In this document: piece after piece, positions 12,441 through 59,880 of the stretch
Position numbering within the stretch: position 1 is the first letter of the stretch
How the letters are laid out: every line of letters begins with the position of its first letter
DNA from: an uncultured virus (IMG/VR IMGVR_UViG_3300020056_000009)
Lineage: Duplodnaviria; Heunggongvirae; Uroviricota; Caudoviricetes
Strand: one strand, 5' to 3'
IMG/VR virus record: IMGVR_UViG_3300020056_000009
Length of the DNA: 64,000 nt
The notes under the pieces: model-generated
Databases searched by the model: none
What the model was told of the DNA's origin: nothing
Seen by the model: only the letters and a program-made list of their open reading frames with translations
Translations under genes and position numbers: made by a program

Positions 12441-13448
12441 ATGTATGTTCTCATTGATGCGGGATTCTTTGTCTCTCGTTTAGCACGAAATTGGGCACCA
12501 CAAGGTAGATTCCGTAAGTGGATGAATCGAGTCGAAGCCAAGAAAATGTCTATCGGACATTACTATAACAAAGTTCGCAAATCCTTGTATGGAGAACTTA
12601 GTTATCTTCAGATGCGAATCAACCAAGCCGGATTTGGCACCGCCGAAATCCACATGATGTTTGACGGCACCGAAGGTCGTCAAGCCCGTGGAACTTTGTT
12701 CCCCCAATACAAAGCCAACCGAGTTCCTAATTCGGTAGAAGAATATAACGCTTCTGAATATTCTATTCGGGACATTCGTGATGAATTACGAGCCGTCGGC
12801 ATGAATCCTGATAATCTTCGCAAGAAGTGGATTTCACATTATGAAGCCGAAAAAGAGGCTGACGATCTTATTGCCGAGTTTGTCGCTGAACACCCTGAAG
12901 ACACCATTATGATTTTCACCCAAGATTCCGACCTTTATCAACTTCGGGCTATCAATGAAACTATTCGTTTTCATAATTTTACGGAAGAGATTAATCCCAT
13001 CGATAACGGGTTTAGTTACCAGCATTATGCTGATTGGAAAGCCTTGGCAGGAGATTCTTCTGACAACATCCCCGGCGTTTCCAACTTGGGTCCCAAGCAA
13101 GCCGCCGATTTAGTTATCAATTATGGTTCTCTCGAAAATATACCTGACCCTTACTTTTTGTATTACACCTGCACCGAAACTGCCGCTTTGGTTTTAGCCA
13201 ATGTAATCACCCAATATCAAACTGACAATGATATTACGGATGCTACTATGAAGCGAAAATGGGGTGCTGCAATTATGAATCTCAAAAACGGTCAAGCCGT
13301 CAAACTCAATCAATCTCAATACGAAAAGTTAGTTAATTGTGAGGCCATCGATGAAGGCTATTTTCAACAACATAATGATCGGGACAACATTATGAACTAC
13401 CGAACCATTATTAAATTGCCCAGTCCACTTCATGATGGAAACATATAA
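12441..13448 (+). CDS. 5'-3' exonuclease/flap endonuclease (PolI-N/T5 D15/T4 RNase H type)
   Basis: LIDAG, MFDG..R..LFPQYKANR, EADDLIA, QDSDLYQL, LAGDSSDNIPGV..LGPK. Confidence 0.92.
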   Translation: MYVLIDAGFFVSRLARNWAPQGRFRKWMNRVEAKKMSIGHYYNKVRKSLYGELSYLQMRINQAGFGTAEIHMMFDGTEGRQARGTLFPQYKANRVPNSVEEYNASEYSIRDIRDELRAVGMNPDNLRKKWISHYEAEKEADDLIAEFVAEHPEDTIMIFTQDSDLYQLRAINETIRFHNFTEEINPIDNGFSYQHYADWKALAGDSSDNIPGVSNLGPKQAADLVINYGSLENIPDPYFLYYTCTETAALVLANVITQYQTDNDITDATMKRKWGAAIMNLKNGQAVKLNQSQYEKLVNCEAIDEGYFQQHNDRDNIMNYRTIIKLPSPLHDGNI

Positions 13449-13474
13449 ATAGGTAATCTAACCTATGGTTAATT

Positions 13475-13705
13475 ATGCCTTCTGAACTACGAATTGACCT
13501 TGAATCTTTGCAAGGATATATTGCGGCTACGGCTTCCGGAGCCGTTTCAGAACATAAGGCCGTCCATTATCTCCTCAAATCTATTTTAGATATGGGTTGT
13601 CGTTGGCGAGATAATCCCACTATTGTTATTACTCGTAACGATGTTGAGGCCGAATTAGATTCGGATTTAGCACAAGATTTAGACGACCTTTTGGGAGGCT
13701 TCTGA
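13475..13705 (+). CDS. hypothetical protein with acidic tail
   Basis: TATAAATAG 30 nt upstream; ends DLDDLLGGF. Confidence 0.75.
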   Translation: MPSELRIDLESLQGYIAATASGAVSEHKAVHYLLKSILDMGCRWRDNPTIVITRNDVEAELDSDLAQDLDDLLGGF

Positions 13706-13810
13706 TTGACCTGCCCTGTTTGTTCTTGTTGTCGTTTTGAAAAGCAAATGGAATTGTCTAATGGTTATTGGGTATGTGGTTGTGGCTATGCCATTAAATC
13801 ACTTGAATAA
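13706..13810 (+). CDS. 34-aa Zn-ribbon peptide (absent from ORF track)
   Basis: TTG start after GGAGG; CPVC...WVCGCG. Confidence 0.45.
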   Translation: MTCPVCSCCRFEKQMELSNGYWVCGCGYAIKSLE

Positions 13811-14029
13811 ACTTCCCAAACCATCAAACATTTCATCGTCACATTTGCCACAGAATTTTGTCTCATCGATGCCATGTTTACAACGAATAATTTTCTTAAA
13901 AACTTCTAAGACATTTTGTCTATTGATAGCATCAATGAAAAAACTATTACTACCGATATACTTACCATCATAAATCTTTTGAACCACATCTCTTACAATA
14001 TCATTTGAACCCCCTAATTGTTTCCTCAT
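13799..14029 (-). CDS. hypothetical protein with ribosomal-stalk-like C-terminus
   Basis: CKHG..CGKC; ends DDEMFDGLGSLFK; the frame is open ~35 codons upstream of this ATG. Confidence 0.65.
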   Translation of the reverse strand: MRKQLGGSNDIVRDVVQKIYDGKYIGSNSFFIDAINRQNVLEVFKKIIRCKHGIDETKFCGKCDDEMFDGLGSLFK

Positions 14030-14076
14030 TAGGTTGATATCTTGATCATCAAAATGACGATTTAATTGACCTGTGG

Positions 14077-14478
14077 CTAATTCTTCCCAAGTCCAAAAAT
14101 CATTTTTATCCTTTCTCCGAATAAAGATCCCAAACCTTCAAATCCCATTTCTTCTTCGGTAATAATACCATTTGCACTTCTAACATATTTTTTATCATCA
14201 CCCATAAACTCAAATTTAAATTCGTAAACTTTTGTTTGGTCATTAAATTTAAATTCCCAAGTTCTTGGAGTTCTAAACCACCAATCCCAAATATCCTCAT
14301 ATCCAGAACTCGATTCAAAAATATTAGTTATACCGGCATTATTCATAGTTGCCTCTATTTCATAATGAGACATCTTAATTACATCAATCCACCTTCTGTC
14401 ATTTGCCATTATATGAGCCGCCGATTCTGACCAACCAGAATCCATTAACTTTTTCTTAGTGGCTGATTTAACTACCAT
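14077..14478 (-). CDS. hypothetical protein with stalk-like EEEMGFEGLGSLFG motif
   Basis: GGAGGTAA SD upstream; motif near the C-terminus. Confidence 0.75.
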   Translation of the reverse strand: MVVKSATKKKLMDSGWSESAAHIMANDRRWIDVIKMSHYEIEATMNNAGITNIFESSSGYEDIWDWWFRTPRTWEFKFNDQTKVYEFKFEFMGDDKKYVRSANGIITEEEMGFEGLGSLFGERIKMIFGLGKN

Positions 14479-14479
14479 A

Positions 14480-15013
14480 TTAGATTACCTCCTGTTTGTT
14501 AATGGCTTGCCAAATTATATTTTCTTCGGGTGGTCGCCACGCCCACATAATCGCAGGATTGTTCATATCAAAGTTTTCTTGATTCAGCATTCCCATAGGT
14601 GCTTCATTATCAAAGTAATAGCGAGCATTATGAATATAATCTTCCGGGCTGGTAGTATAAGCATTAGGCTCACTACTACTTAATGGATCATCAAAAGGTT
14701 TTATCCATTCATTATACCATTCCCGCTCATCTTTATTAGAAAACCACGATTTATTATTAGCATAAGCATGATGTAATCTTGTCCAAAAACCCTTTCTGGG
14801 CAGGGGTGTTTCAGCAACGATTCTTTCATCATTTGTAGTTAAGTCACCCAAATCATAAAAAGTCCACCAATCTGCTGCTGACATTCCCGGATACCATTGT
14901 AAACTATCATCAGATCCAAAAATTGCTTTTGTTATGGCCGATTTTGACCATTCCATTATATCATCAGTTTTAAACCGATTATGAATAATCGCCCACACTT
15001 CCGATTTAAACAT
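14480..15013 (-). CDS. hypothetical Trp-rich protein, AIN tag
   Basis: coupled in operon; ends WQAINKQEVI. Confidence 0.75.
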   Translation of the reverse strand: MFKSEVWAIIHNRFKTDDIMEWSKSAITKAIFGSDDSLQWYPGMSAADWWTFYDLGDLTTNDERIVAETPLPRKGFWTRLHHAYANNKSWFSNKDEREWYNEWIKPFDDPLSSSEPNAYTTSPEDYIHNARYYFDNEAPMGMLNQENFDMNNPAIMWAWRPPEENIIWQAINKQEVI

Positions 15014-15531
15014 TATAACACCTTCCTTTTGTTTATAGCATCATAGCCTATTTTTTCCTGATGATACTCTTGCAACCATCGATCTACTTTAGAAATAAAA
15101 CGCTTATCCAATTGATAAAAATCATAAACCGAACCATCATAATCATCGCTAAATGGAATACCATCATAAGTGTTATTATCTAAATCTAACAACCATACAT
15201 CTCGGGGTTCTAATCTAAATGTTTCAGAATTATGTTCTATTAACATGGGAATTGCTATTAAATTATCTCCTAAACCCACTTCACCATGACTGCGATTAGT
15301 TAAGAAAAATATCCCATGTTGTTTTGCTAACTCTAATATATAGTCATCATAGTCTGGACCAAAAGAAACCTGTGTAATGGGGCGACCCCCTAAGTTTTCT
15401 TTAGCCAATTTTAATAGCAGATCAAAGGAATCTTTTTCATCTAAGACCTCAGTTTTTCCTTTAAGAAAGTTATTATAATCACCCATGCAAAATAGCATAT
15501 TAATCCATTTTTCTCCTGGATAATAAGTCAT
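15013..15531 (-). CDS. hypothetical protein, AIN tag
   Basis: coupled; ends GYDAINKRKVL. Confidence 0.75.
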   Translation of the reverse strand: MTYYPGEKWINMLFCMGDYNNFLKGKTEVLDEKDSFDLLLKLAKENLGGRPITQVSFGPDYDDYILELAKQHGIFFLTNRSHGEVGLGDNLIAIPMLIEHNSETFRLEPRDVWLLDLDNNTYDGIPFSDDYDGSVYDFYQLDKRFISKVDRWLQEYHQEKIGYDAINKRKVL

Positions 15532-16067
15532 TAAATCTTCCCCCGGTTAATAGCCATTGGAATTATAATTTCCTCAAACCAAATTTTTAATTGATCATTT
15601 TCACTTCCTGTTTTTTCCCAAGCCAATAATAATTCTCGATACAAAAAACTTGGAATATCTTTAAAATTTGGAGTAATATAATAGTTACCAACTTTAACCC
15701 AAATAGCCCATTTTTCTGATAAAATTGACTCGTAATAACCACCCCAAAAATTTTTAGCAAATGGTCCCGTAACTTGTTCTTCTTCTGGAATTTTCTGCAT
15801 CTTAATTGGTGGTGATTTTTTCCAATGCAAGTTTTTAGTATCAATACCATTTAACCAAAACCCCTGCCAGAGAATTGCCCAATAACGAGAACTGTGACTC
15901 CCAGACTCTGCTTTTTTGACAGTAAATCTATATGTATCATAATTGGTTTCTACCCACATATAATAATTTTTATTAGCCTCAAATTTATCTAAAAATTCTA
16001 AACCTACATTAAATTGTTCCAAAGCATTTTCTTCATCCATTTTAAAAATGACAGGCTCAGAAATCAT
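15531..16067 (-). CDS. hypothetical protein, AIN tag
   Basis: coupled; ends PMAINRGKI. Confidence 0.75.
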   Translation of the reverse strand: MISEPVIFKMDEENALEQFNVGLEFLDKFEANKNYYMWVETNYDTYRFTVKKAESGSHSSRYWAILWQGFWLNGIDTKNLHWKKSPPIKMQKIPEEEQVTGPFAKNFWGGYYESILSEKWAIWVKVGNYYITPNFKDIPSFLYRELLLAWEKTGSENDQLKIWFEEIIIPMAINRGKI

Positions 16068-16069
16068 AA

Positions 16070-16537
16070 TTAATCCTCATATTGCTTTCTTATTGAATCC
16101 AAAGTGTCAAAATTATTTTCTACTATCCAACCAAATCTACAATCAAGTTCATTATCAAGAACCGCATAATAATCATTGCCATCAAAATTCCATTTGACAG
16201 CCCACACCGGAAGGTAAGATTGTCCATAATCTATTTTCCAAGCCACCTCATCAAAAAAATTTTTTTCATCATAGGATTCTAAAACATATCTTTGAGATTC
16301 CGAAAAATACATTTCAGACCATTTAAATAAACCTGATGTATCCGTTGATACTTGATCAATTTTGATAACTTGTTGAGCATTTTCCTTAGCAAAATCCTCA
16401 GCGTCATCGATAATATTTACTAATAATTGACTTTCTAAAGTTGAAACTATCTCATCTGCATTTTTGTCTTGTTTTGTAATAAGAATTACTTGACCTCCGG
16501 CTTCGGAAGTCCGTAACCAATTGACAATTCCAGTCAT
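16070..16537 (-). CDS. hypothetical protein, IINWL-type N-terminus
   Basis: MTGIVNWLRT; minus-strand TATATAG promoter ~30 nt upstream. Confidence 0.75.
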   Translation of the reverse strand: MTGIVNWLRTSEAGGQVILITKQDKNADEIVSTLESQLLVNIIDDAEDFAKENAQQVIKIDQVSTDTSGLFKWSEMYFSESQRYVLESYDEKNFFDEVAWKIDYGQSYLPVWAVKWNFDGNDYYAVLDNELDCRFGWIVENNFDTLDSIRKQYED

Positions 16538-16612
16538 GTCGAATGATTCTTCTTCCGACTATATATAATCTCCGACATAACATATAAGTAGGTGCAAACC
16601 ACAGGTTTGCCC

Positions 16613-18803: not shown

Positions 18804-18824
18804 GTGGTCTCCCCAAATCAACCT

Positions 18825-19442
18825 ATGGTTGAATTAACTTGTCAAGTTATTCCCGATGAGTTCACGGATTACCTCTCCTCGTCCTTTGATTATGAATTCG
18901 ATGGAACTTCTAAGTTCACCCTTCCCGATTTCACAACCCCGGAAAATTTTAAGATTGGATTAATTGTCGGATCTTCCGGATCTGGAAAATCACAGATTCT
19001 AAAAAATTATTTTAATTTTAGCGAAGAGGGTCACGAATGGCAACCCGATAAGGCTATTGTTTCGCATTTCAATAATCCTGAAGAGGCTGTCAAAAAACTC
19101 ATGGCTTGTGGACTTTCTTCTATTCCCAGCATGACTAAGCCTTACCGAGTCTTGTCTAACGGAGAACGATTTCGAGCCGATGTAGCCCGACAATTATCCG
19201 ATGGAGCCATTATTGATGAATACACTTCCGTAGTAAACCGTGAAGTAGCCAAGTCGCTTTCTATCGCTCTTCATAATTATGTCCATACTGAAGGACTAAC
19301 TCACATTGTTTTGGCTTCTTGTCATCGTGATATTATTGATTGGCTTAAACCTGATTGGATTTTCGATACAGATAGTATGGATTTGGCCGAAATGGATGTA
19401 ACCCACCGTCGGAGAGTGGCTCGAATTGAAATTGAATATTGA
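18825..19442 (+). CDS. ABC-type ATPase (phage ABC-ATPase/GNAT type)
   Basis: GSSGSGKS, LSNGERFRA, IIDEYTSVV, ASCH, LKPDWIFD. Confidence 0.9.
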   Translation: MVELTCQVIPDEFTDYLSSSFDYEFDGTSKFTLPDFTTPENFKIGLIVGSSGSGKSQILKNYFNFSEEGHEWQPDKAIVSHFNNPEEAVKKLMACGLSSIPSMTKPYRVLSNGERFRADVARQLSDGAIIDEYTSVVNREVAKSLSIALHNYVHTEGLTHIVLASCHRDIIDWLKPDWIFDTDSMDLAEMDVTHRRRVARIEIEY

Positions 19443-19908
19443 GGTCTTTGAAATTTTCGGTGCCGACGCTAAGCGTTCCTACTGGAAAATTTTTGAGAAG
19501 CACCACTATTTATCTAACCAATTAAATGTGGCGGCCCGGTGTTTTATAGCCACCCTCAATGGAGAATTAGTAGGTTTTAACTCGGTTTTACCCCAACCCA
19601 GTGGAACCCTTTCCAATGCTTTTAGAGAACACCGATTGGTTATCCTTGCCGACTTTCAAGGCATGGGCTTAGGAACTTCGCTTTCCGAATGTATCGGCAC
19701 CATTATGAGATCCGAAAACAAACGCTATTATAGCAAAACTACCAATCCCAAATTAGGAGTATATCGTAATAAATCACCTCAATGGCGAGCCACCAGCAAA
19801 AACGGAATCGCCCGAAAACTACATGAAGGTCGTAACCGCAACATGAGTAATGACGCTGTGCGTTATGGAGTAGTATGCTACTCCCACGAATATATTGGAG
19901 AAGATTAA
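19426..19908 (+). CDS. GNAT/Mom-like acetyltransferase
   Basis: WKIFEKHHYL, REHRLVILADFQGMGLG; TTG start overlapping the ATPase end in the +1 frame. Confidence 0.85.
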   Translation: MKLNIEVFEIFGADAKRSYWKIFEKHHYLSNQLNVAARCFIATLNGELVGFNSVLPQPSGTLSNAFREHRLVILADFQGMGLGTSLSECIGTIMRSENKRYYSKTTNPKLGVYRNKSPQWRATSKNGIARKLHEGRNRNMSNDAVRYGVVCYSHEYIGED

Positions 19909-23689: not shown

Positions 23690-25693
23690 ATGGCTGATTT
23701 TTCAGACCCCACTATTCGGGCAAATTGGCTACAAGATGTCAAAGTAAAACTTGGTCTTGACTATCAAGATTTTTATAATCTTAAATTTAAGGACATTAGA
23801 CATATCCCTCTTTTTAGCCAATTCCAAAGAAATTGTGCCGATTGGATCTCAGAAGTAGAAAATGCCTTCCCGCAATACGATTGGAAGTTTTATAGATTTG
23901 ATAGAGTAATCAACCGATGGCAACATTCACATTATCAAAAACAATGGTGGCAAGATTTTAAAAATGATTTAAACATTACTACTCAAGAACAAATGTATAA
24001 ATTAAGTAGAAAAGATTTAGTTAATCATACTCGATCCACAATTAATCTCTTTCGTATTGATTACAATAATGAACATTCTTCATTCATTATGGCAATGGAG
24101 CCACAATTTGATTGGAAACCCTATCGTTTTGTTAATACTCCTTTTTGGTATTGGAAAGACCTAAAAAATCAGCGTCAATGGTTTGAAGACTTAATGGAAC
24201 ATGAAGGTTGGCAAACATGGGAAGATTGTTATCAAATCACTCAAAAGAAAATTAAAAATTTTAATGGTGATGCCTTAATTTCAAAATCCAGCCCACATTG
24301 TTCCAGCATTATTGAATTATTACAAACCCTTGTTCCAGAGTGTGATTGGAAATTTTATAAATTAGGTCAAGCCCCGGCAGGTTATTGGGATGACCCACAA
24401 AATCAACAAATGTGGTGGGATGATTTTTATCAACACATGGGTTGTCCAAGTCAAAAAGAAATGTATAAAATTACTCACGATGATGTTATTGCTTTTTATG
24501 GTTGTAGTTTACTTAATAGAAGATATTCTATTTACGATTTAATCAAAAATTTCAACCCTCATTTAGAATGGGACGATTCTTTATTTGCTGTAGTCCCATA
24601 TGGATTTTATGAAGATTGGAATAATAGAAAAAAATTGTTTGATCGATTTTGCGATTATTATAACATTACTAATTGGGAACAATTATACGATATTGAACAT
24701 GAACAAGTTGCAGAAGTTATTTCCATGACTATGTTTGGTGGGACATCAAAAGGTTATTATGATAGTATCAAGCAATGGTTTATAGACATGGTTCCGGAAT
24801 TTAAATTCAAGGGATATCTTTTTAGTATGGTAGAAAGAAATTATTGGGATTCTATGGAAAATCGAAGGGAAGTTATTTATGATTTAATGGAAGCAAAAGG
24901 TTGGCAATTAGAAGATCTTTATCAACTAAAAATTCAAGATATTAGAGATATGGGGGCTGCAACAATGGCTGCGAGATATATGGATTCTACTCTTGATATG
25001 CTTTGTGATTTATTTCCTGAGTTTAATTGGAAACCCCATAGATTTAAAAAGGTTGGTGGAGGCTATTGGGGAACTCGGGAAAAACCCAATCGTAAATCAA
25101 TTGAATTATATTGGCAAGATTTGTGTAAACATTTTTCATTATCAGCCTTAGAAGATTTTCCACAAATGACTCAAAAAGAATTAACTTCTTTTTATGGTGG
25201 TGGACCAATGGCTTCTTGCGGCCCTCGTTTTTCTTGGTATGAATTGTGTTGTTATATGATGCCGGATATAGATTGGGACAGATCTGTTTTCGATAAAAAG
25301 GGGAAAAATCAAGGATTGCTTTATCGAATTTTACGAGATAATTTAGATTCCTCAGCCATTCTTGAATGGAAATCAGAAGGAAAATTCTCACAATCAGGAA
25401 GAAGAATGGGTTATGATATCTATCTACCCAAATTTAATGCTGTGATCGAATATCAAGGATTTCAACACTATACTTGGAAAGAAAATGTTTTTGGAGGGGA
25501 AAAATCTCACAAACAATTAGTTCTAAGAGATGCCGAAAAGAAAAAATGGGCCTTAGATAATAATTACATTTATCTTGAAATTCCCAATCTTGATGGATAT
25601 ACTAACCTTCCCGGTTGGCAGCATAATTTAGAATCATTTTTAGAAATTGCAAAACTTCAAGGAGTAGATTTCGATCTCGAAATCGGGTCTTGA
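23690..25693 (+). CDS. tandem-repeat protein with C-terminal PD-(D/E)xK (Vsr/DUF559-like) endonuclease
   Basis: ~7 repeats of ~75 aa (W..N..WF..Y.I..G..P..W..F); YDIYLPKFNAVIEYQGFQHY..RDAEK. Confidence 0.8.
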   Translation: MADFSDPTIRANWLQDVKVKLGLDYQDFYNLKFKDIRHIPLFSQFQRNCADWISEVENAFPQYDWKFYRFDRVINRWQHSHYQKQWWQDFKNDLNITTQEQMYKLSRKDLVNHTRSTINLFRIDYNNEHSSFIMAMEPQFDWKPYRFVNTPFWYWKDLKNQRQWFEDLMEHEGWQTWEDCYQITQKKIKNFNGDALISKSSPHCSSIIELLQTLVPECDWKFYKLGQAPAGYWDDPQNQQMWWDDFYQHMGCPSQKEMYKITHDDVIAFYGCSLLNRRYSIYDLIKNFNPHLEWDDSLFAVVPYGFYEDWNNRKKLFDRFCDYYNITNWEQLYDIEHEQVAEVISMTMFGGTSKGYYDSIKQWFIDMVPEFKFKGYLFSMVERNYWDSMENRREVIYDLMEAKGWQLEDLYQLKIQDIRDMGAATMAARYMDSTLDMLCDLFPEFNWKPHRFKKVGGGYWGTREKPNRKSIELYWQDLCKHFSLSALEDFPQMTQKELTSFYGGGPMASCGPRFSWYELCCYMMPDIDWDRSVFDKKGKNQGLLYRILRDNLDSSAILEWKSEGKFSQSGRRMGYDIYLPKFNAVIEYQGFQHYTWKENVFGGEKSHKQLVLRDAEKKKWALDNNYIYLEIPNLDGYTNLPGWQHNLESFLEIAKLQGVDFDLEIGS

Positions 25694-25808
25694 GTCCGGT
25701 GAATACCAAACAACTATAATCAACCCAAATAAAACTAAACAAAAATAAAGAGGGTTTAGAAACCACCATAACAAAGTATAAATAGATGGGGTGCAGATGA
25801 TTAAATCC

Positions 25809-27830
25809 ATGTCCGAAAGCAAGTTCTACCTCACCGATTCATTCGTCGAAAAATACCGTCGCAAGAAGGCTCCATTTGGTTTCAACGGTCTTGGAGAGTT
25901 GGTTTACAACCGCACATACAGTCGCCTTAAGGACGATGGCAAAAACGAACAATGGTTTGAAACGGTTCGTCGTGTTGTCGAAGGAACTTACAATATGCAA
26001 AAGCGACATATCGAAATGCATGGTTTGGGTTGGAACGCTTGGAAAGCCCAACACTCCGCTCAAGAGATGTATGATCGAATTTGGAATATGAAGTTCTTGC
26101 CCCCCGGACGCGGTTTATGGGCCATGGGAACACCGATTACCGAAGAAAAGGGCTTGTTTGCTGCTCTCAATAACTGTGCTTTTGTCTCCACCGAAAACCT
26201 CAAAGAAGATCTTGCCGCACCTTTTGTATTCCTTATGGATGCTTCCATGCTGGGTGTTGGCGTCGGATTCGATGTCAAGGGTGCTGGAAAAGTTATGGTT
26301 AAAGGCCCCTCCGATACTCGTCGCCCCGAACAATTTGTGATTCCCGATACCCGAGAAGGATGGGTAGATTCTGTCAAGATGCAAATTGAATCATATTTAT
26401 TGGGCACCGCCCCGGTAACTTTTGACTATTCGCAAATCCGACCCGCTGGTGAACCTATTCGTGGTTTTGGTGGCGAATCTTCCGGACCTCGACCTTTGGT
26501 AGATCTCCACACTCACATTGATTCCGTTTTGTCTAAAGAAATTGGATCTCCCATTAGTCAAACCGCTATTGTGGATATCATGAACCTAATCGGTAAGTGT
26601 GTTGTCGCCGGCAATGTCCGACGCACCGCTGAAATTGTGTTTGGTCCTGCTGATTCTGAAGAGTATATTGACCTCAAAAATTACGAAGTCAATCCACACC
26701 GTATGGATTATGGATGGACCAGTAACAACTCTGTTTTCGCAACCGTTGGTATGGATTATGGACCTACTGCGGAACGGGTAAACCTCAATGGTGAACCCGG
26801 CTATGCGTGGTTGGACAACATGAGGGCATATGGCCGAATGAAAGATCCGATTAATAACAAAGACCACCGAGCCAAAGGTGGTAATCCTTGTCTTGAGCAA
26901 ACTTTAGAATCCTATGAGTTGTGTTGCCTTGTGGAAACCTTCCCCAATAACCATGAGTCTTTAGAGGATTATCTCAAGACTCTCAAATACGCTTACCTAT
27001 ATGCTAAGACTGTTACCCTTGGAAAAACGCATTGGCCGGAAACCAACAAAGTGATGCTACGAAACCGCCGAATCGGTTGCAGCATGAGTGGTATTGCCCA
27101 ATTCCTCGCAGACCGTGGTATGAGTAATCTTATTGATTGGATGGATGCGGGATATGACCACATTCAAAGATTAGACACCGAGTATTCTGATTGGTTCGCT
27201 ATTCCCAAGTCTATCAAAACTACGAGTATCAAGCCTTCGGGCACGGTTTCACTCTTGGCGGGAGCAACCCCCGGCATTCACTTTCCCGAATCCCGATATT
27301 ATATCCGTCGTATGCGATTAGGCAAAATCTCTAATCTTGTTCCGGCTTTAGTTAAGGCTGGATACAAGGTAGAACCTTGTGTCGGTGCTGAAGAAGATAC
27401 TGTTGTTGTCGAAATCCCCGTAGATGTAGGCGAAGGAGTTCGCACCGTCGATCAAGTTTCTATGTGGGAACAATTATCGTTGGCGGCTGTGGCTCAACGC
27501 TATTGGGCTGATAACCAAGTGTCTTGCACCGTGACCTTCCAACCGGAAACCGAAGGAAGTCAAATTGCCTCCGCCCTTGATGTTTTCCAATATCAATTGA
27601 AGGGAATCTCCTTCCTTCCCAAACTTGATTTCGGGGCTTTCCCGCAAATGCCCTATGAGGCTATCGATTTGGAAACCTATACCGAGATGAAGTCCGAATT
27701 AGGAAAACTCAACTTTGGTCGTGTTAAGGGCGAAGAAATTATTGCTGAGCGATTCTGTGATAACGATGTTTGTGATATTGACTTTGTTTCGGTATCTTCT
27801 GATACTGAAGAATTGGTTGCTGATGAGTAA
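25809..27830 (+). CDS. nrdJ: class II (adenosylcobalamin) ribonucleotide reductase, monomeric RTPR type
   Basis: RTYSR, PPGRGLW, LNNC, GNVRRTAE, NPCLEQ, LCCLVE, IKPSGT, C-terminal CDNDVC. Confidence 0.96.
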   Translation: MSESKFYLTDSFVEKYRRKKAPFGFNGLGELVYNRTYSRLKDDGKNEQWFETVRRVVEGTYNMQKRHIEMHGLGWNAWKAQHSAQEMYDRIWNMKFLPPGRGLWAMGTPITEEKGLFAALNNCAFVSTENLKEDLAAPFVFLMDASMLGVGVGFDVKGAGKVMVKGPSDTRRPEQFVIPDTREGWVDSVKMQIESYLLGTAPVTFDYSQIRPAGEPIRGFGGESSGPRPLVDLHTHIDSVLSKEIGSPISQTAIVDIMNLIGKCVVAGNVRRTAEIVFGPADSEEYIDLKNYEVNPHRMDYGWTSNNSVFATVGMDYGPTAERVNLNGEPGYAWLDNMRAYGRMKDPINNKDHRAKGGNPCLEQTLESYELCCLVETFPNNHESLEDYLKTLKYAYLYAKTVTLGKTHWPETNKVMLRNRRIGCSMSGIAQFLADRGMSNLIDWMDAGYDHIQRLDTEYSDWFAIPKSIKTTSIKPSGTVSLLAGATPGIHFPESRYYIRRMRLGKISNLVPALVKAGYKVEPCVGAEEDTVVVEIPVDVGEGVRTVDQVSMWEQLSLAAVAQRYWADNQVSCTVTFQPETEGSQIASALDVFQYQLKGISFLPKLDFGAFPQMPYEAIDLETYTEMKSELGKLNFGRVKGEEIIAERFCDNDVCDIDFVSVSSDTEELVADE

Positions 27831-51648: not shown

Positions 51649-54600
51649 ATGGATGATGACGAAATCAATGACGAAATCGACGAGTTAGGAGACCTTTTTA
51701 GCGATCTTCCTGAAGATACCGAAGAAATTAACACCGATGTTGATGAGGTTCCTACGGAAGCCCCACAAGATGACTCTTCTGAAGAAGAAACTATGGATGA
51801 TATCGTAGAAACTACCATTCCCGAAGAAGAAGGAACTAACATTCCTTTCCATCCTGATGTAATGCAAGAATTGTCTAATTTCGTTGGCACCGAAGAACTT
51901 GATGCTATTGCCAAGTTTATTATGCCCGAATATGACGAAGAAGGCGAAATTATTTCCCCACTTGTTACTTCACCACAAGCCCCGGATTCTATTAAGTTTG
52001 TTCGTTCCATTTTGGGTGGTAATACTGCCGACCTTCTCAACAAGGTAGCCGACCTTCGAGGAACCACTCTCAATGAGATGGTCAAAGTAGTAGAACTACC
52101 TGAAGATCTTAACCGTATCGATATTCTTAACGATGGTCTTGGCGGTGCCCGATTTATTCAAATGTTCGATGCTCAAGGTAATGATATTACCAGCGTTCTA
52201 AATTTGGATTTGGATGATATTGGACAACTTAAAGTAGACAAGGTTTTCCGTGGCTCCACTATGACCGCTTTAGATAATGGTGAAGGTCAATGGTCTCCCG
52301 ACAGCATGGGCAAGGCCGTATCTCCACCTTTCCAAGAGTATTACAATTTGATTTCACAACGAGAAACTCGTAAGCAACGAGTTGATACTCTCCAATGGCT
52401 CCGTAAACTTATTAACCGTCTTAACTCCGTTTTCGGTTTCGACGATTACCGACAATTAGAAGCATTTATGGCCGCATGGCTAATGAAGAACGCTACTTGC
52501 CGATTGTCAGGTATTCCAGGAACAGGAAAGACTACGGTTATTAACTGTGCTGCTACCCTTATGGGTAACTCCTATGGATTCCATATCAACAAAACCTATT
52601 TGGCTACCGATTCTACGATGGAAAAATATCCTCTCGATTATACCGGTAACCACACCCTCCCTGATTTCACGATGATTTATGCCGATAACTCTATGGTTTC
52701 CAATGCTCACATGGTTGATGTTGCTCCTTCAGGACAACAATACAATGTTTTGTATAACGACCAACGCAACGAATCCATTTATCGTAATTGGAATGGATGG
52801 CGTTTCCGAGATTGGCAACCTACGGCTCCCGGAACGGTGCGACTATCAGGATCTTATTCCTTTGATTTCAATTTCCTTCGACGCTACGAACCAGCCTATG
52901 AAAAATTAGGTCTTCCTGCTATCGATGGTGACCGATTGTCCAAAGCCCCCATGACCCCTGAAAAGTTCCACAAGGTTCTAAACAACTGTTGGGAAGTTGA
53001 AGTTGCTCAAGATTTCGATCTTAAAGCACACCTCAAGGGACAATCAATGTCCCATTGGGACCCCAACTCTGAAGGCTTCAAAGAGGCTAAAAAGGCTGGT
53101 AAAACTCGTATGATGGTTAAGCCAATTCAATATTTCGGTAGAGATGGTTCAGTATCTTTCTTTAATAACAATACTGGACCCACTTACGGACCCTACCAAA
53201 TGCGATTGCGATTCCCTGAAATTGATTCCGCTGTTATGGAAGATGGCTTTAAGCATATTACTGATTTGGCTACCTATATCGGTGCTACGGGACAACAAGG
53301 ATTGTTCTCCGATACGGGTCGTAACGAAGGTTATTGGCTCCGACATCTAATGTGCCATTGGTTTGTTGATGACCGCACTAACTCCGATCGCGGTTTGTTC
53401 GATATCAGCGTAGAAATGCTCCGAGAAATCGGTGTGGCAAAGATTGACTTCGACAAGCGACCTGATGAAGTTCTTTATGGTCTTGAAATCCGTGCTGTTG
53501 AAGCCGTAAACCAAGCCGGAGAAACAGTCAGCACCTATGAGTTCGAACCTGTGCCTCGTGAAATTGTAACGCAACCGGTTAAGTTCTTCAACGAAGCCAA
53601 CCGTTCTCAATCTGGTGTTGAAGACGCCGTTCTTGGTCTAATTGCTGAAAAGTTAGTCGAATATCGTGGTAAAACTTTCAAGTCTCCCGATTTCGTAGCA
53701 TGGATGGACACCAACCCTCACCAAAAGGGTAACGACTTGGCATTTACTGACCGTATCGATATGGAACTACTCTTTAAGTCAGTTTCTCTCGGTGGCCGAT
53801 ATGACCAATTGTCCAACAAATTCGGTGGGGCCGGTGGAAAAGAACCTCAACTAATCTTGGTAGATTATCTTACTAAGGATGGTAATGACCCCAATTCTTT
53901 CCGTCCTATGCGTATCGTTAATCTGTTCAGTCTATGGAAGACTGTCGGCAAAGATATGAAGTTTACATCCCCCGGTTCAACCTTTGATGGTCTGCGTGAT
54001 ATTTCAGTTATCTCGGTTCTGTTTTCCCAAATTTTCGCCAAGCGACCCTCTTCGATCACTTTTGGTGATAACGCCTACAACTACACTTTCGCTGAAGATG
54101 ATAATCTCAATCTTTACGAATCACCTCTTTTGGATTATTCTACCACTACCAACACCAACACTTCTGATAAGGGAACCACTTCTCCTGTGCTAACTGATGA
54201 TGCCAACCTAATTTTCGGTAGCATGGATGCTGGACAAGGACAACTACCAATTGTCTTTACTCGTGTTCTTGGTTTCCGTTTCACCAACTCTTTGGTAAAA
54301 CTATCTCAAGCCTTCGCATTCTTGCGAGGCAAAGATTTCGTTTCTCGCCAAGAAATTTTGGATGCTGTGCCTTATGTAATTGCACACCGTATGGGTCGTG
54401 CTAAGGCGGGTGCTAAAGACATGGAAGGAAACAACAAGGGTCTTGATGGAAACCGTTTGGGATATGTCAATGAACAAGAATTCATTCGAGAATTCATCGT
54501 TAAGGGCTATCTTGAAGGTAAAATCGGTGATGTTTCACCCTTTAACGAAGACAATAACAACCTCTTGGACAATGTAGATTATTTCTACAATCATTGTCGC

Positions 54601-55947
54601 ACCATGATGGATTCTGTGCCAAATGTTTGGGAATATGAATCTTTGGTAATGGAACCCATTTACCGCAATATCTTGGAAGGCGATGTTGATGATATCACTC
54701 CAATTCACTGGCACATTGCTACCATGGTTGTCGAAGAAGAACGCAAGGGTCGTGGACGAACCGTTATGCGAGATTATTCCAAGTCATTTGCAGGTCCTCG
54801 TGGCACCCCACTAATTACCAAGGCCCCTACCAATTATCATGAAATGTATAGTAATTACGAATTCATGATTTTGAATCCCTCTCCTAACGGAGAACCATCA
54901 GCATGGGACTACTACCGTCTGCGTGGTTTGGTATCTCGTGAACCCAACTTGTTTACTCATGACCGTGAACGATTGCTAACCATGATTTCTGGTGAAATGC
55001 GATCTACTGTTGGTGCTGAAGGTCTTCAACTTCGCAACGATATTGGTAGTGTATCAGTTATTCCCTTCCCACAAGCCGTATCATCTGGTCGAATGCGATA
55101 CTATCCTGAAGGAGATGAATCTCCGTGGCCCCGTCCCGACCAAATTTATTGGCCTGTTTATGATGACGCTCAAGGAGCATGGGGAACTCTTATTGGTTTT
55201 GGTGCTGCCGAAACCTATGATAACACTCAAGTTGCCACACCATTGTCAGTTCAAAATGATTTCTCCTTAGCGGCGGCTAACCAATCCCTCCGAGTTTCAG
55301 GACGATATCTCCAATCAGGCGGTGTCACTTCCCTCTCTAAATACGATGTGGCCTCTACCCTCAAGAAGTTTTACGATAACTTTACGCCTTATGTCGGTGC
55401 AGGTTGGGACATGGAAGATACCTTCCCTAACGCTGATGTCAAAAACTCCAATGCTGGAAAGGCTATTACCTTTGAATCATGGATTAAAAAGGCTCAAGAG
55501 TTCTTGAAGCGTAAAATCCGAGATCCTGTGGGCGATGCTTACAATGATATCTATGCTTGTTTTGAATTGGACCACGCTCCAATTTCTGTTCCACAGGCTG
55601 CCCTACGAGGAATCACGGGAGATGACAAACTTCGCTTGTGGCTCCGACTCAGTTATGTTGGTTCCAACATTACCGAAACGGGTGCTGATTTGGTAGATAT
55701 TCTCTTTACCGTCGGTATTTCTTCGGCTTTGGCAACTACCAGCAAGAACAATCTTGGTTTGTTGGCTCAAGGTGCTGACTTTACCATTGTTCCTGTCACG
55801 GAAGATAAGCAATACACGCAACGCTATTATAGCAACGGTGCATCACAACCAGGATACAAAACCAACACGGCTTTGGTAGACTCAGGTAACATGATGTCTT
55901 CCGATCGCAACTATTATAACAACCTCTTTGCAGAATCTTTGCAATGA
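51649..55947 (+). CDS. giant MoxR-like AAA+ ATPase with large insertions
   Basis: Walker A SGIPGTGKT, Walker B-like FFNEANR, sensor-1 MDTNP, AFTDRID, lid AFAFLRGKDFV..VIAHR. Confidence 0.85.
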   Translation: MDDDEINDEIDELGDLFSDLPEDTEEINTDVDEVPTEAPQDDSSEEETMDDIVETTIPEEEGTNIPFHPDVMQELSNFVGTEELDAIAKFIMPEYDEEGEIISPLVTSPQAPDSIKFVRSILGGNTADLLNKVADLRGTTLNEMVKVVELPEDLNRIDILNDGLGGARFIQMFDAQGNDITSVLNLDLDDIGQLKVDKVFRGSTMTALDNGEGQWSPDSMGKAVSPPFQEYYNLISQRETRKQRVDTLQWLRKLINRLNSVFGFDDYRQLEAFMAAWLMKNATCRLSGIPGTGKTTVINCAATLMGNSYGFHINKTYLATDSTMEKYPLDYTGNHTLPDFTMIYADNSMVSNAHMVDVAPSGQQYNVLYNDQRNESIYRNWNGWRFRDWQPTAPGTVRLSGSYSFDFNFLRRYEPAYEKLGLPAIDGDRLSKAPMTPEKFHKVLNNCWEVEVAQDFDLKAHLKGQSMSHWDPNSEGFKEAKKAGKTRMMVKPIQYFGRDGSVSFFNNNTGPTYGPYQMRLRFPEIDSAVMEDGFKHITDLATYIGATGQQGLFSDTGRNEGYWLRHLMCHWFVDDRTNSDRGLFDISVEMLREIGVAKIDFDKRPDEVLYGLEIRAVEAVNQAGETVSTYEFEPVPREIVTQPVKFFNEANRSQSGVEDAVLGLIAEKLVEYRGKTFKSPDFVAWMDTNPHQKGNDLAFTDRIDMELLFKSVSLGGRYDQLSNKFGGAGGKEPQLILVDYLTKDGNDPNSFRPMRIVNLFSLWKTVGKDMKFTSPGSTFDGLRDISVISVLFSQIFAKRPSSITFGDNAYNYTFAEDDNLNLYESPLLDYSTTTNTNTSDKGTTSPVLTDDANLIFGSMDAGQGQLPIVFTRVLGFRFTNSLVKLSQAFAFLRGKDFVSRQEILDAVPYVIAHRMGRAKAGAKDMEGNNKGLDGNRLGYVNEQEFIREFIVKGYLEGKIGDVSPFNEDNNNLLDNVDYFYNHCRTMMDSVPNVWEYESLVMEPIYRNILEGDVDDITPIHWHIATMVVEEERKGRGRTVMRDYSKSFAGPRGTPLITKAPTNYHEMYSNYEFMILNPSPNGEPSAWDYYRLRGLVSREPNLFTHDRERLLTMISGEMRSTVGAEGLQLRNDIGSVSVIPFPQAVSSGRMRYYPEGDESPWPRPDQIYWPVYDDAQGAWGTLIGFGAAETYDNTQVATPLSVQNDFSLAAANQSLRVSGRYLQSGGVTSLSKYDVASTLKKFYDNFTPYVGAGWDMEDTFPNADVKNSNAGKAITFESWIKKAQEFLKRKIRDPVGDAYNDIYACFELDHAPISVPQAALRGITGDDKLRLWLRLSYVGSNITETGADLVDILFTVGISSALATTSKNNLGLLAQGADFTIVPVTEDKQYTQRYYSNGASQPGYKTNTALVDSGNMMSSDRNYYNNLFAESLQ

Positions 55948-55986
55948 CCCAAAAGTTAATATAGTTGATGACCTTAAGATAGTCAT

Positions 55987-57237
55987 ATGGCTAAGTTGCC
56001 CTCGACTTCGGTTCGTGCGTCAGCCCACTTGCCAGCCAATTTTATTGATACCTATAAAGTATTCAAGAAAATGACGGGTATTCCTTCCGATACTCAAATG
56101 GTTTTGTCTACCTCGCTTCACAATGCTTATACCAATTCTAAGCAAGTTTGTTTTGGACCGGAATGGGTAGACTCATCAATTCCTGCCAATTTTCATGGTT
56201 TCGATAATCTTGATGAAGTTATTGCCATGAATCAATTCGTTATTGCCCACGAAGTTGGACATCTTTCGGTTCAACCCGGGTGGGAAGTATCTTGGGGAAA
56301 AGACATTGGTGAATGGCCTATCGACCACGCTCGCCAACCCCGATGGAGCAATGTTTTCTCGGATGTCTTGGTAAACACCCACATTATGCAGGCTCGTGAT
56401 TGGTCACGCACCGGTTCAGATCCCGAAACTCAAAAGATTCTTGATTTGATGCCGTGGTCACAACGATGGCACTTAAAATCTCGCATTTGCGAAAATACTC
56501 TTAAACACGATATGCTTCGAGCCGCTGGCACTCTCCCTGATAACCGATATCAAGCCCCCGGTTTAGTTCGTGGTGCTTACGATCCTTCTGACCCTGATGA
56601 CCAATTTACTCCTGATGAAGCCTTGACTCCTCTTTATCAAGTTAAAACCGGACACGGAAGAGGATTCCAAGTTTACCCACCCCTTTCTCATTGTGTTTCC
56701 AAACCAGACAAATGGCGACAAGTAGTTGTTAAAACTGATTATAATTTAGTCCAATGTAGCCAATGTGAAGAGATTTTCCCCGATAAACTCCAAATTCGTG
56801 GTCGTTGTCCTCGATGTAACAAAAGTTGTTCCGCTTACAAAACTATTTCTGCTGGAACTTATACCGTTACCAAAACTAAAGATTTAAATCAAGAAGTTAA
56901 TCCTACCAATCCTACTTTTCCCCATTATTATGAAATTAATAATTCTTGGATTCCCTTTTATATTTGTCAAGAACTTTGTCCTGATTGTGGAGAAGCCGCT
57001 TCTTGCGATCTTACCGAAGGTTTTTCTACGGTAATCAACGACCCTGCAGCATCGGCTTGTTCCGAACAATCTACCCTTTGGCGAGTATTAGTTATGCAAG
57101 AATATGCTGGATTCCGTGCTCTCCAAGATGGTTTTAGAGGAAAAACAGGCATAGAAGCCGGATTAGCCTTTTTAGAGGCCATCGGTATTATTGCGGATTT
57201 TGCAGAAATGAAGTGTCAAGACTTCCCGGCGAGGTGA
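55987..57237 (+). CDS. HExxH metallopeptidase-like protein (DUF2201-N-like) with Zn ribbons
   Basis: IAHEVGH..NVFSDVLVN; CSQC, CPRC, CPDC. Confidence 0.7.
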   Translation: MAKLPSTSVRASAHLPANFIDTYKVFKKMTGIPSDTQMVLSTSLHNAYTNSKQVCFGPEWVDSSIPANFHGFDNLDEVIAMNQFVIAHEVGHLSVQPGWEVSWGKDIGEWPIDHARQPRWSNVFSDVLVNTHIMQARDWSRTGSDPETQKILDLMPWSQRWHLKSRICENTLKHDMLRAAGTLPDNRYQAPGLVRGAYDPSDPDDQFTPDEALTPLYQVKTGHGRGFQVYPPLSHCVSKPDKWRQVVVKTDYNLVQCSQCEEIFPDKLQIRGRCPRCNKSCSAYKTISAGTYTVTKTKDLNQEVNPTNPTFPHYYEINNSWIPFYICQELCPDCGEAASCDLTEGFSTVINDPAASACSEQSTLWRVLVMQEYAGFRALQDGFRGKTGIEAGLAFLEAIGIIADFAEMKCQDFPAR

Positions 57238-57241
57238 TATT

Positions 57242-59869
57242 ATGTATGATAACAATCCTTTTCCATCTATGGCTGGTAGCCAAATCCTAAAAGATATGTT
57301 TAAGGCCATTTATCGACCAGACCCTTCTGACGACAATAAGTTAGCCGAAGGAGTTCGAGAAAATAGAAATTATTTCAATTCTCATAAAGCGGCTATGGTA
57401 AATCTTATGAAGCGTTTTTTGGGAGGTTATGAACCTATCGAAGAAAATAACTCTATGGATTCCGGAATCTATGTTTGTGATCCTAATTTTGGTGGTTGCG
57501 GTCGAGCCGATTTCATGTATAATTGGGAATTTGTAGACATGGGAGTTTATGATGCTCGTAATTGGTTAGGTTCTTTAGAATTAAAACAAGATAAAATTTG
57601 GGCTCAACGAGGATTCCCCGTCATTACCCGAGTTCGCTGCAATGATTACAATCATTGTCAAGACTGTAATGCTACTTTTGCAACTCGAACCAGAGGCCGT
57701 AGTTGTATTTATTGTGGTAGTAATAACACCCAAGGTGGTGGTTGTGGAAAAGAACATTTTGCAGTCCATTTAGTTCGTGAAACTACGGCTGATAATATTG
57801 AGGCCCAAACCCTTCCGGCTATTAAACCCACTAACTATGTTTTGGGAACTATGCGTGGTAAACCAGCACAAATTTCTTCCAGTAAACCGTTTGCTTTTAG
57901 ATTGACTTATGCCGGAGTTCCTAACGACCAAAGAATTACTTCTTTTCAACAGGCTTGTGATTATATTCCTAATTTAGAAGTAGGTTATGAAGCCTCTTCA
58001 GATGGTTATACCTTTTATCGACCTAATCGATTGGTTTCTTCCGAGGGTGAGGAAACTTTCTTTGGAACGCCCTCACTTAATCCTACTGATAGCAGACAAA
58101 TTATGAATGGTCAAACTGATTCTAAAGGCAATAGTTGGTTTTTAGACCCTGAAGTTGCCGATCTTGAATTCATTGATATGAATCGATATAGTAGTTCCTC
58201 TGAAAAAATGAGATCTAAATTATTGGATTTTAACTCTGAACCTTCTCGCTATCCACTCAGTAAACTTCGTTTTGCCTTTACTATGGAACCGCAATTAGTT
58301 TGCACTAATCACGCTTCCTATTATGGTTCCGGAAACCGAATGTTGTGGGGACTTGCGGGGCAAGTCACTTGTCCTAAATGTGGTCGAACCAATCAACCGT
58401 ATGAACGAAGAGATCGATCTACCGGAGCGATTACCCGAGAATGTCGGTCTTGTAATTTTGATATTACTCTTCTACCTCCTTTTTCATCACCCCGTCCTCT
58501 TAGTTTGTGTCCCGAATGCGGTAATAACACCGACCCTATTAACATTCGAGAAATTAAATCGGGAGTTAAGGGTAAATTGATTTATCCTCGTAAAAAATTA
58601 TTTATTAAAGCCGACCCCAAGATTTTCCCACTCCAAGTTCAAGGAAAAGCCAACACTCTTCCCGGAAGCAGAACACTTTTGATGGTTACTGACGATGATG
58701 AAGATGGATACAGTTACGAATTACATTTGGCCGATAAATACACTACCCTGATGGTTCCTAATTCTTTAGAACAGGCTCAAGGATTATTAGGAATGGGTGA
58801 TGGTGCTTCTGGCTCGGCTTCAGATTCTTGCCCCAAAGATAATATGTGCTCTCTTACCGGAGAACCCTTATCAGCATCTATGGGACCCTCAGGACCTATT
58901 GCACCTGCCGGAGCACCGGTTCCCGACCCCGAAGGATGTTGTATTCTTCCTGATGGAAATCTAATCAATACTACGGAATTAGGCTGTTTGGCCCTTAATG
59001 GAAATTATCAAGGCGATGGCACAGATGTGGCAGATTATATGACTACTCGTTCTGCTTCTCTAACTTATCCCGAATCAGGAGTTTCCTTCCCAGCGTTTTC
59101 ATGGATTGTTTGTGAAGGTCACGCCCAATCAGCCTATCGAAATAATCGTCGAAAGTGGGTTGATATGTCAGTTCCTAATAGAGTTTATCGAGATCCTAAT
59201 ACCGGAGAATCAGGAACTTTGCGAACATTCCCTCGCTTTAGTGAAGGGCCCAATTATGACCCTCGAACCAAAATTATGGTAGGTTCTCCCCCTGCACCTG
59301 AAATGGCTCGTCGCAGTAAATATCAATGGATGAATCCTCGGACTCACATGATGATGGATATTTTTAAGCATTGTTCTATTAACTTGCGAGGCAGATCTCC
59401 TGACTCGGCTTTTGCCAACCCCACTCACCGACCTAAGGCTCGGGGTTATGTTGAACTTGATGCTAATACCATTGCTCCTCTCTACACTTGTCGCACTTGT
59501 TTGAGTATGATGACTTATGGAAGAGATTTAGCCTTTAAGAATGACTCTTCAGGAGCCGGTAATCCCTATGGTAAACCTTGGACTACTATTGGAGGTGCTG
59601 CTAATCTAAGAGAGGCATGGAATGATGGACGCCCTGAAAAGTATTATCCCGGAGTCGAAGTCATGTGGGAACGACGAAAAGCAGGACAATATACAGGATG
59701 GATTGATGATAACACCCCCAGTTTCTTGCCTCGTCGTATCGATGTTTATTCGGAAGCCATTTTGCATATGGAGATTAAAACTACGCAACAAGAAAACGGA
59801 TGGTGGGCGTGGATTCATGACCAAACCATTTATCAGATGTCAAAAACCCCCGGTTCATATATTATTTAG
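57242..59869 (+). CDS. 875-aa multi-Zn-ribbon protein
   Basis: CQDC, CIYC, CPKC, CRSC, CPEC, CRTC; GAGGTGATATTATG SD. Confidence 0.85.
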   Translation: MYDNNPFPSMAGSQILKDMFKAIYRPDPSDDNKLAEGVRENRNYFNSHKAAMVNLMKRFLGGYEPIEENNSMDSGIYVCDPNFGGCGRADFMYNWEFVDMGVYDARNWLGSLELKQDKIWAQRGFPVITRVRCNDYNHCQDCNATFATRTRGRSCIYCGSNNTQGGGCGKEHFAVHLVRETTADNIEAQTLPAIKPTNYVLGTMRGKPAQISSSKPFAFRLTYAGVPNDQRITSFQQACDYIPNLEVGYEASSDGYTFYRPNRLVSSEGEETFFGTPSLNPTDSRQIMNGQTDSKGNSWFLDPEVADLEFIDMNRYSSSSEKMRSKLLDFNSEPSRYPLSKLRFAFTMEPQLVCTNHASYYGSGNRMLWGLAGQVTCPKCGRTNQPYERRDRSTGAITRECRSCNFDITLLPPFSSPRPLSLCPECGNNTDPINIREIKSGVKGKLIYPRKKLFIKADPKIFPLQVQGKANTLPGSRTLLMVTDDDEDGYSYELHLADKYTTLMVPNSLEQAQGLLGMGDGASGSASDSCPKDNMCSLTGEPLSASMGPSGPIAPAGAPVPDPEGCCILPDGNLINTTELGCLALNGNYQGDGTDVADYMTTRSASLTYPESGVSFPAFSWIVCEGHAQSAYRNNRRKWVDMSVPNRVYRDPNTGESGTLRTFPRFSEGPNYDPRTKIMVGSPPAPEMARRSKYQWMNPRTHMMMDIFKHCSINLRGRSPDSAFANPTHRPKARGYVELDANTIAPLYTCRTCLSMMTYGRDLAFKNDSSGAGNPYGKPWTTIGGAANLREAWNDGRPEKYYPGVEVMWERRKAGQYTGWIDDNTPSFLPRRIDVYSEAILHMEIKTTQQENGWWAWIHDQTIYQMSKTPGSYII

Positions 59870-59880
59870 GAAGTGAAAAA

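Follow-up and report, generated by a model that had tools for sequence, protein, structure and literature searches.

Why should a virus encode the tail of a ribosomal stalk? In archaea and eukaryotes that tail is the universal handle by which translational GTPases are recruited to the ribosome; the C-terminal domain of aP1 and aP0 binds aEF1A, aEF2, aIF5B and ABCE1, and each archaeal ribosome carries seven such tails. The DNA considered here is a stretch of 64,000 nucleotides (the window) that looks viral. A sequence-only reading had drawn attention to two adjacent small proteins in it, encoded at 13799 and 14077, that carry an acidic GLGSLF motif of the stalk type. It took them for mimics that capture or redirect host translation factors, and suggested a likeness between the N terminus of one of them and an extension of a Poseidoniales RNA polymerase subunit.

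The gene, its family and its neighborhood

The motif is present in both ORFs, as that reading had said, and a count made on the six-frame translation of the whole window (64,000 bases) finds exactly two copies of GLGSLF, both within 13799..14478. The ORF at 13799-14029 (minus strand) ends ...CDDEMFDGLGSLFK-stop, and upstream of it the frame remains open (...KDKNDFWTWEELATGQ...). The 133-aa ORF at 14077-14478 (minus strand) carries ...EEEMGFEGLGSLFG, followed by 13 more residues that are out of frame with respect to the intact protein. The serine codon of the motif differs between the two copies (TCT versus AGT), while most other codons are common to both.

The two ORFs are parts of one gene. 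Logan contigs from three DNA runs (X1, a possible source of the window, and the further runs X5 and X6) align to 13000-15600 with no other letter changed and with one gap each, a T inserted after 14111 on the plus strand that lengthens an A-run of the coding strand; the run GAAAAGG is one A shorter in the window than in the intact form. The extra base fuses ORFs 14077-14478 and 13799-14029 into a single 226-aa frame, and residues 1-122 of the window followed by 104 residues of the second frame are exactly identical to the database protein P0001 (226 aa). Because the contigs of all three runs give this continuous frame, the split at 14112..14114 is an error or a rare variant of the window record, and the first GLGSLF is internal in the intact protein, at residues 115-120. 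The features of the gene are as follows.

13799..14478, minus strand: fused gene for the 226-aa protein (= P0001), broken in the window record by one missing base
14112..14114, minus strand: site of the 1-nt gap; TTT (plus) or AAA (coding) in the window, TTTT or AAAA in the contigs, where the frame reads ...GLGSLFGEKDKNDFW...
14260..14478, minus strand: N-terminal module, residues 1-73; invariant start MVVKSATKKKLMD.G; four short helices
14116..14142, minus strand: FEGLGSLFG, the internal copy of the stalk tail (residues 113-121), with EEEMG before it; modeled as part of a linker of low confidence
13799..13828, minus strand: C-terminal stalk-tail copy FDGLGSLFK and stop; preceded by acidic CDDEM

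Elsewhere in the window, ORFs 18804-19442 and 19426-19908 overlap and match positions 3-203 and 210-351 (of 357) of phrog_11143. They are probably another gene split by an indel, a hint that the record contains more errors of this kind.

When the 133-aa ORF was used to search 5.8 billion proteins, 50 relatives (protein clusters) came back; 47 of these have the full length (205-229 aa) and extend over both window ORFs. In an alignment of 48 sequences (A1), most of which are only about 30% identical to P0001, three near-invariant islands stand out: the N terminus, an internal F[RE]GLGSLF block and the C terminus. Invariant positions are M1-D13 (position 12 excepted), G15, L116, S118-F120 and S223. 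The sequence-only reading had named loss of the motif in homologs as grounds for abandoning it, and the motif is conserved. The internal GLGSLF-type motif occurs in 50/50 homologs, exactly so in 49, and a C terminus of ...SLF plus one residue in 46/50. That ending is usually F[DE]GLGSLFG, and GLGSLFG closes 36 of the proteins; the window protein's own last residue is K rather than G. The remaining C termini comprise one SIFG and three (P0021, P0024, P0046) that are truncated or divergent.

The surroundings of the internal motif are distinctive. Most homologs have arginine, not acidic residues, before it (FRGLGSLFS), and a conserved D-W follows; the motif belongs to a more extended conserved stretch, F[RE]GLGSLFxxxxx(x)DW, which is absent from stalk proteins. 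Across 22 related loci (201,690 bases) the family gene is the only plausible one that contains the motif; four stray contexts were seen, none of them stalk-like. Two relatives, L104:10001-10564 (ending ...SINRANITELFW) and L117:2755-3342 (ending ...DNQLKRLYD), have no C-terminal tail, and the second also lacks the internal motif; these tail-less forms may be natural loss variants or errors.

Searches of viral collections were negative within their scope. Neither blastn of 13400-16600 nor tblastn of the homolog P0039 matched the phage collection, and scans of IMG/VR with a single protein and with A1 gave 340 pattern matches and no confirmed relative. A narrow pattern scan of IMG/VR for proteins ending GLGALFG-TAA, which covers that stop codon and that tail variant only, gave seven loci, none with an acidic stalk-like tail, the ends being Gly/Ala-rich or membrane-like. 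A word search with the tail region of the family member P0010 yielded no short protein as a candidate, and the same search also missed host aP1.

The stalk-tail gene is the last of a five-gene minus-strand block (16537-13799) and faces convergent genes on the other strand.

16070-16537, 15531-16067, 15013-15531 and 14480-15013, minus strand: four tightly packed upstream genes with no family match
13706..13810, plus strand: 34-aa Cys-rich, zinc-ribbon-like ORF, convergent with the gene and sharing its last 12 bases; kept in 18 related loci
13475..13705, plus strand: convergent 76-aa gene whose product ends DLDDLLGGF; the protein is conserved, the tail is not

Past the gene, the order is the 34-aa Cys-rich ORF, the 76-aa gene and a FEN-like exonuclease. 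About 20 metagenome loci share this gene order, including one on a contig of 168,910 bases. Among related viral loci, the 14480-15013 gene is found in 18 of 21 and the 15013-15531 gene in six; of the more distal genes, 15531-16067 is found in eight loci, mostly as weak partial matches, and 16070-16537 in one (L102). DLDDLLGGF had been put forward alongside the two GLGSLF motifs. This ending is indeed present on the 13475-13705 ORF, but it is absent from 16/16 homologs of the 76-aa protein, which end ...LDKISRNEL, ...LDKYTGLES, ...LDDLARGRHQ and similar; it was rejected as a third stalk-like tail and is not part of the mimicry. Contigs from an RNA run (X19) are 90-99% alike to the window over 13689-14042 and 14200-14659; they belong to a relative, with DNA possibly among them, and they are not counted here as expression of the stalk-tail gene.

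The window also encodes an ATP-dependent DNA ligase, the FEN-like exonuclease, ERCC4 and UvdE nucleases, a class II ribonucleotide reductase, methyltransferases, ArsA-like and MoxR-like ATPases, a vWA protein and a terminase/HerA-like ATPase; it contains no tRNA genes. The available text of PMC5434244 gives DNAP, MCM, RFC, clamp and AEP, with an HK97-type structural module, as hallmarks of magroviruses, and notes that group D contigs have genes labeled "DNA-dependent RNA polymerase A". No match to DNAP, MCM or capsid was found in the 64-kb window, and the hallmark magrovirus genes of that paper were not seen there. Two further regions may be recorded. A 667-aa ORF (23690-25693), whose C-terminal part matches homing/HNH endonuclease families, immediately precedes the class II ribonucleotide reductase gene (25791-27830). 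The block 51649-60918 holds very large genes, encoding a 1432-aa protein with an AAA lid domain (MoxR-like) and 416-aa and 875-aa proteins without assignment, together with a protein that has a weak, sub-threshold vWA match; the terminase/HerA-like ATPase gene (60961-62124) follows.

Host counterparts of the N terminus and the tails

The suggested likeness of the N terminus to a Poseidoniales RNA polymerase subunit proved to be real, and it extends to two subunits. A scan of one genome per species with A1 gave at least 610 pattern-matching stretches, of which 539 were confirmed as relatives. In the best 80 of the 539 (76 loci), the matches are confined to residues 1-33 to 1-71, with 41-73% identity; these 76 loci are labeled as Poseidoniales-lineage (39), generic archaeal (35) or bacterial MAGs (2). 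At L039:8001-9566 the module starts a 521-aa ORF that lies directly after rpoA' and matches RNA_pol_Rpb1_5 over residues 122-467. This ORF is RpoA'' (Rpo1C) with an N-terminal extension of about 120 residues. A second copy of the module forms the start of a 216-aa ORF that immediately precedes rpoB (L178:1293-1943) and has RNA_pol_Rpb5_C at residues 145-212; this ORF is therefore RpoH (Rpo5). A 60-residue probe found the module in 64/301 genomes of the phylum, nearly always in two copies (RpoA'' and RpoH); among the phylum members sampled, it is a feature of Poseidoniales alone.

The viral module begins at residue 1 with the block MVVKSATKK[KR]LM[DE].G...AH.LA.DR. Its residues 1-41 are 52-73% identical to the host RpoA'' extension; against the host extensions in general, the first 33-56 residues are 52-73% identical, and a 60-residue comparison gives 42-43%. 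The sequence-only reading had proposed a search with residues 1-50; tblastn matches host rpoA'' at E about 1e-9, and the suggestion of a double mimic is borne out by this identity together with the stalk tails. When the profile that defines the Poseidoniales polymerase module (A3) was run against 1.84 billion representative proteins, 213 clusters, many of them fragments, matched at E<=0.001, nearly all from residue 1.

The module also heads other proteins. Among them are P0146, which has a TFIIB repeat; P0165, which has AAA_15/AAA_21 ATPase domains; and a family of 316-337 aa (P0097, P0123, P0124) ending ...AINW..F..HIG. It is found on zinc-ribbon-ended proteins such as L172:9944-10543, which adjoins ThyX- and TFB-like genes as read from ORF translations, and on an unrelated protein at L119:3585-4571. 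Viruses of Poseidoniales seem to have a targeting module in common.

Prediction of the structure offers a view of how these parts are arranged. The AF2 model built with A1 (pLDDT 73.8, pTM 0.63) has four helices in residues 3-47 and one at 63-69, with pLDDT of 74-92 per 10-residue block over residues 1-70. A four-stranded sheet (74-110) and helices (131-173) follow, and from residue 175 to the end, where the C-terminal motif lies, the chain is unstructured and of low confidence. The internal motif falls in a low-confidence linker, so that both motifs are in flexible parts. The fold of residues 1-73 resembles (HhH)2 and SAM domains over 57-62 residues (rmsd 2.2-2.9 A) at Z 5.0-5.9, a weak score in a range common for helical models; the matches include topoisomerase V (Z 5.9), FAAP24, Hef and NusA, and SAM domains score alike. 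Pfam gave no HhH hit to the module, only stray weak hits, and PDB sequences gave only weak Noc matches. Foldseek of the full model against the PDB found nothing at E<=0.001, and the ESM Atlas returned no usable feature hit for residues 52-180 (structure TM <=0.39). The middle part folded alone (A2, 10 sequences) reached a pLDDT of only 44.8 and is unusable.

The tails were compared with those of candidate hosts, as the sequence-only reading had advised. In four Poseidoniales MAGs, aP1 ends ...EEEEGGFDGLGSLFG or ...AAFEGLGSLFG, and aP0 ends ...GGFDGLGSLFG or ...GFGGLGDLFG. In five further genomes with the polymerase add-on, aP1 ends GF[DE]GLGSLFG, so that the aP1 tail F[DE]GLGSLFG is present in 9/9 examined genomes that have the add-on (L077-L080, L221-L225). 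Where genomes of this phylum lack the add-on, the ending is ...AAGL[GSN]ALFG, in 29/29 loci (L181-L209). By this comparison the GLGSLFG-type tail is specific to the Poseidoniales lineage within the sampled phylum, and the viral C terminus F[DE]GLGSLFG is identical to the Poseidoniales aP1/aP0 tails, unlike the GL[GSN]ALFG of the rest of the phylum. In five host genomes exact GLGSLF occurs in P0 and P1 only, apart from one internal occurrence in a TldD/PmbA-like ORF, which is a chance hit. The host codons for GLGSLF differ from the viral codons, and thus the identity is held at the level of protein. Mimicry of the stalk tail, in terms of sequence, is strongly supported. The likeness does not extend to the stalk family profile: host aP1 scores 51-60 bits with PF00428 (Ribosomal_60s), while no Pfam family was found at E up to 0.1 in either window ORF or in P0001, P0039 or P0022.

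The residues that are kept are among those that matter in the solved complex of a stalk tail with aEF1A. The accessible part of PMC4267659 describes, for Pyrococcus horikoshii, contacts of aP1 residues L100, L103, S104, L106 and F107, and of the carboxylate of the terminal G108, with aEF1A; binding is lost with L103S, L106S and F107S, and aEF2 binding uses these three residues as well. When positions are numbered back from the C terminus, the viral F-D-G-L-G-S-L-F-G retains the counterparts of L103, L106, F107 and G108, and at positions 104 and 105 it has exactly the Poseidoniales substitutions. On the side of the factor, host aEF1A (L210:1498-2787, 429 aa), as read by hand from its alignment with 3wy9_A, keeps K125, F129, L166 and L359, and the changes read from P. 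horikoshii are R132K, I384L, K324V, A360E and S423K. Host aEF1A thus differs, on this hand reading, at 3/9 named contact residues (K324V, A360E, S423K). In the solved complex K324 pairs with the C-terminal carboxylate of the stalk tail. Since positions 324 and 423 both adjoin that carboxylate, loss of K324 and gain of K423 in the host factor may be a compensating swap.

Possible roles and competing explanations

The element is virus-like and associated with Poseidoniales (Marine Group II archaea). What is established is that a single gene encodes a 226-aa protein in which three conserved, host-copying elements, identical to host-specific sequences, are joined by fast-evolving domains. We favor the view, to which we assign a probability of roughly 0.55, that the protein is a viral adaptor or decoy whose two stalk tails bind aEF1A, aEF2, aIF5B or ABCE1 and whose polymerase-type module places it. 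The N-terminal module (about 60-70 residues, the first 13 invariant) would be an (HhH)2-like part that contacts DNA or polymerase and so sets the protein's place. The tails would dock where the ribosomal stalk tails do, in the hydrophobic grooves of aEF1A, aEF2, aIF5B and ABCE1, and the protein would in this way capture translation factors. As a decoy it would keep the factors from host ribosomes; as an adaptor it would concentrate them near transcribing or viral DNA. Depletion of factors would starve the virus's own translation too, which speaks against the decoy. The terminal K of the window's own tail and the three changed contact residues of host aEF1A likewise count against factor binding, and the low fold scores count against an (HhH)2-like module. 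A point against factor binding by the internal copy is that this copy has no free carboxylate, the group that contacts aEF1A in the solved complex. With an arginine before it and the conserved D-W after it, the internal copy may be partly structural.

A more specific proposal is a bridge between transcription and translation. Here the module would sit on host polymerase or on the DNA that it transcribes, perhaps at the downstream-DNA jaws, where it could displace the RpoA''/RpoH modules or pair with them. The tails would keep aEF1A, aEF2 and aIF5B there as a reserve, and ribosomes that trail the polymerase along viral genes would receive factors first. The proteins in which the module is joined to other cargo (TFIIB repeat, AAA ATPases, zinc ribbons) would then form a viral effector toolkit directed at one host site. 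We regard this version as tentative and rather improbable.

Other explanations must be set against the adaptor or decoy reading. The tails might instead soak up a host protein that docks on the stalk, for example a ribosome-inactivating toxin of abortive infection. We know of no stalk-docking toxin in archaea. An exact, host-specific tail would be equally expected of such an anti-defense decoy, and a target of low abundance should be easier to titrate than the abundant elongation factors; the idea leaves the polymerase-type module without a role. There is precedent in the trichosanthin-type toxins, which dock on eukaryotic stalk tails according to the available portions of PMC4379515 and PMC2632931, and we consider this explanation unlikely. 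An unrelated function, such as self-assembly or contact with a partner from the operon, with the stalk likeness being coincidental or a relic of an old capture of a gene fragment, would fit the placement of the internal motif within a longer block that stalk proteins lack. It accounts poorly for a nine-residue, lineage-specific identity at the very C terminus, after an acidic disordered stretch as in aP1 and aP0, and for retention of the tail in 46/50 clusters that are otherwise about 30% identical. Because the codons of virus and host differ, a recent relic in particular is unlikely, and the explanation as a whole seems an improbable one.

Two further alternatives concern the record rather than the function. 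It could be held that the region encodes two separate small proteins, perhaps through a real or programmed frameshift, as the two ORFs of the window would suggest and as the cluster P0021 (135 aa), which also stops soon after the first motif, might illustrate. The extra base is present in 3/3 DNA runs (X1 being a possible source) that are otherwise identical to the window, 47/50 clusters are full length, and the split PHROG pair suggests indel errors in the record. A programmed frameshift was rejected on the strength of these contigs and because the site, GGAGAAAGG, is by our own reading no classical slippery heptamer; we consider two proteins very improbable, and the claim of two adjacent proteins gives way to one gene. 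A chimeric assembly or host contamination, with fragments of P1 and rpoA'' misjoined to viral DNA, is suggested by the host likeness itself and by nothing more. About 20 independent metagenome loci have the gene with its synteny conserved, 50 protein clusters contain it, and the host codons for the motif differ from the viral ones; an artifact of this kind is next to impossible.

If the tails of the preferred adaptor or decoy do bind the factors, the protein would be the first viral stalk mimic known to us and a new viral route to the control of translation, in viruses whose hosts rank among the most abundant surface-ocean archaea. In the literature searched (stalk-factor biochemistry and magrovirus papers) we found no description of a viral stalk-tail mimic, nor in the literature searched any of the Poseidoniales RpoA''/RpoH extension. 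PMC5434244, in its available text, and PMC11706807 contain nothing on the ribosomal stalk, mimicry or elongation factors, the word "translation" occurring only in the reference list of PMC11706807; the accessible part of a 2026 review (PMC13712778) mentions no viral stalk-tail mimic. Since both the tail and the polymerase module that the virus has copied are Poseidoniales-specific, the gene can be used as a sequence-based host marker for uncultured viruses. It also exposes two undescribed features of the host, the N-terminal module common to RpoA'' and RpoH and the lineage-specific stalk tail, and the former may bear on the linkage of transcription and translation in archaea.

Relation to known systems

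The closest counterparts of the viral protein are the stalk proteins aP1 and aP0, with which it shares an acidic flexible stretch ending in the identical nine residues F[DE]GLGSLFG. The presence of several tails per viral molecule recalls the multi-copy stalk. Yet the viral protein has neither the dimerization domain of P1 nor the rRNA-binding domain of P0; a short acidic run takes the place of the long Ala/Glu hinge of the stalk proteins; one of its copies is internal; and its gene lies on a virus-like element, outside a ribosomal protein operon.

At the other end of the chain the counterparts are RpoA'' and RpoH, which have the same start, MVVKSATKK[KR]LM[DE].G..E..AH.LA.DR., and in which the module is likewise always at residue 1. 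In the host subunits a basic linker and RNA_pol_Rpb1_5 or RNA_pol_Rpb5_C follow, whereas in the viral protein a small beta-sheet domain, as predicted, and then the stalk motifs come after the module. The DNA-binding and dimerizing (HhH)2 domains of topoisomerase V, Hef/XPF-ERCC1, FAAP24 and the C-terminal repeats of NusA, like SAM domains, offer a weak fold match to residues 1-73, but the viral module has no sequence-profile match to them. A different parallel is provided by the ribosome-inactivating proteins of the trichosanthin and ricin type, which exploit the same short stalk peptide as a hub of interactions, as the available portions of PMC4379515 and PMC2632931 describe. Those proteins bind the stalk tail; the viral protein carries it.
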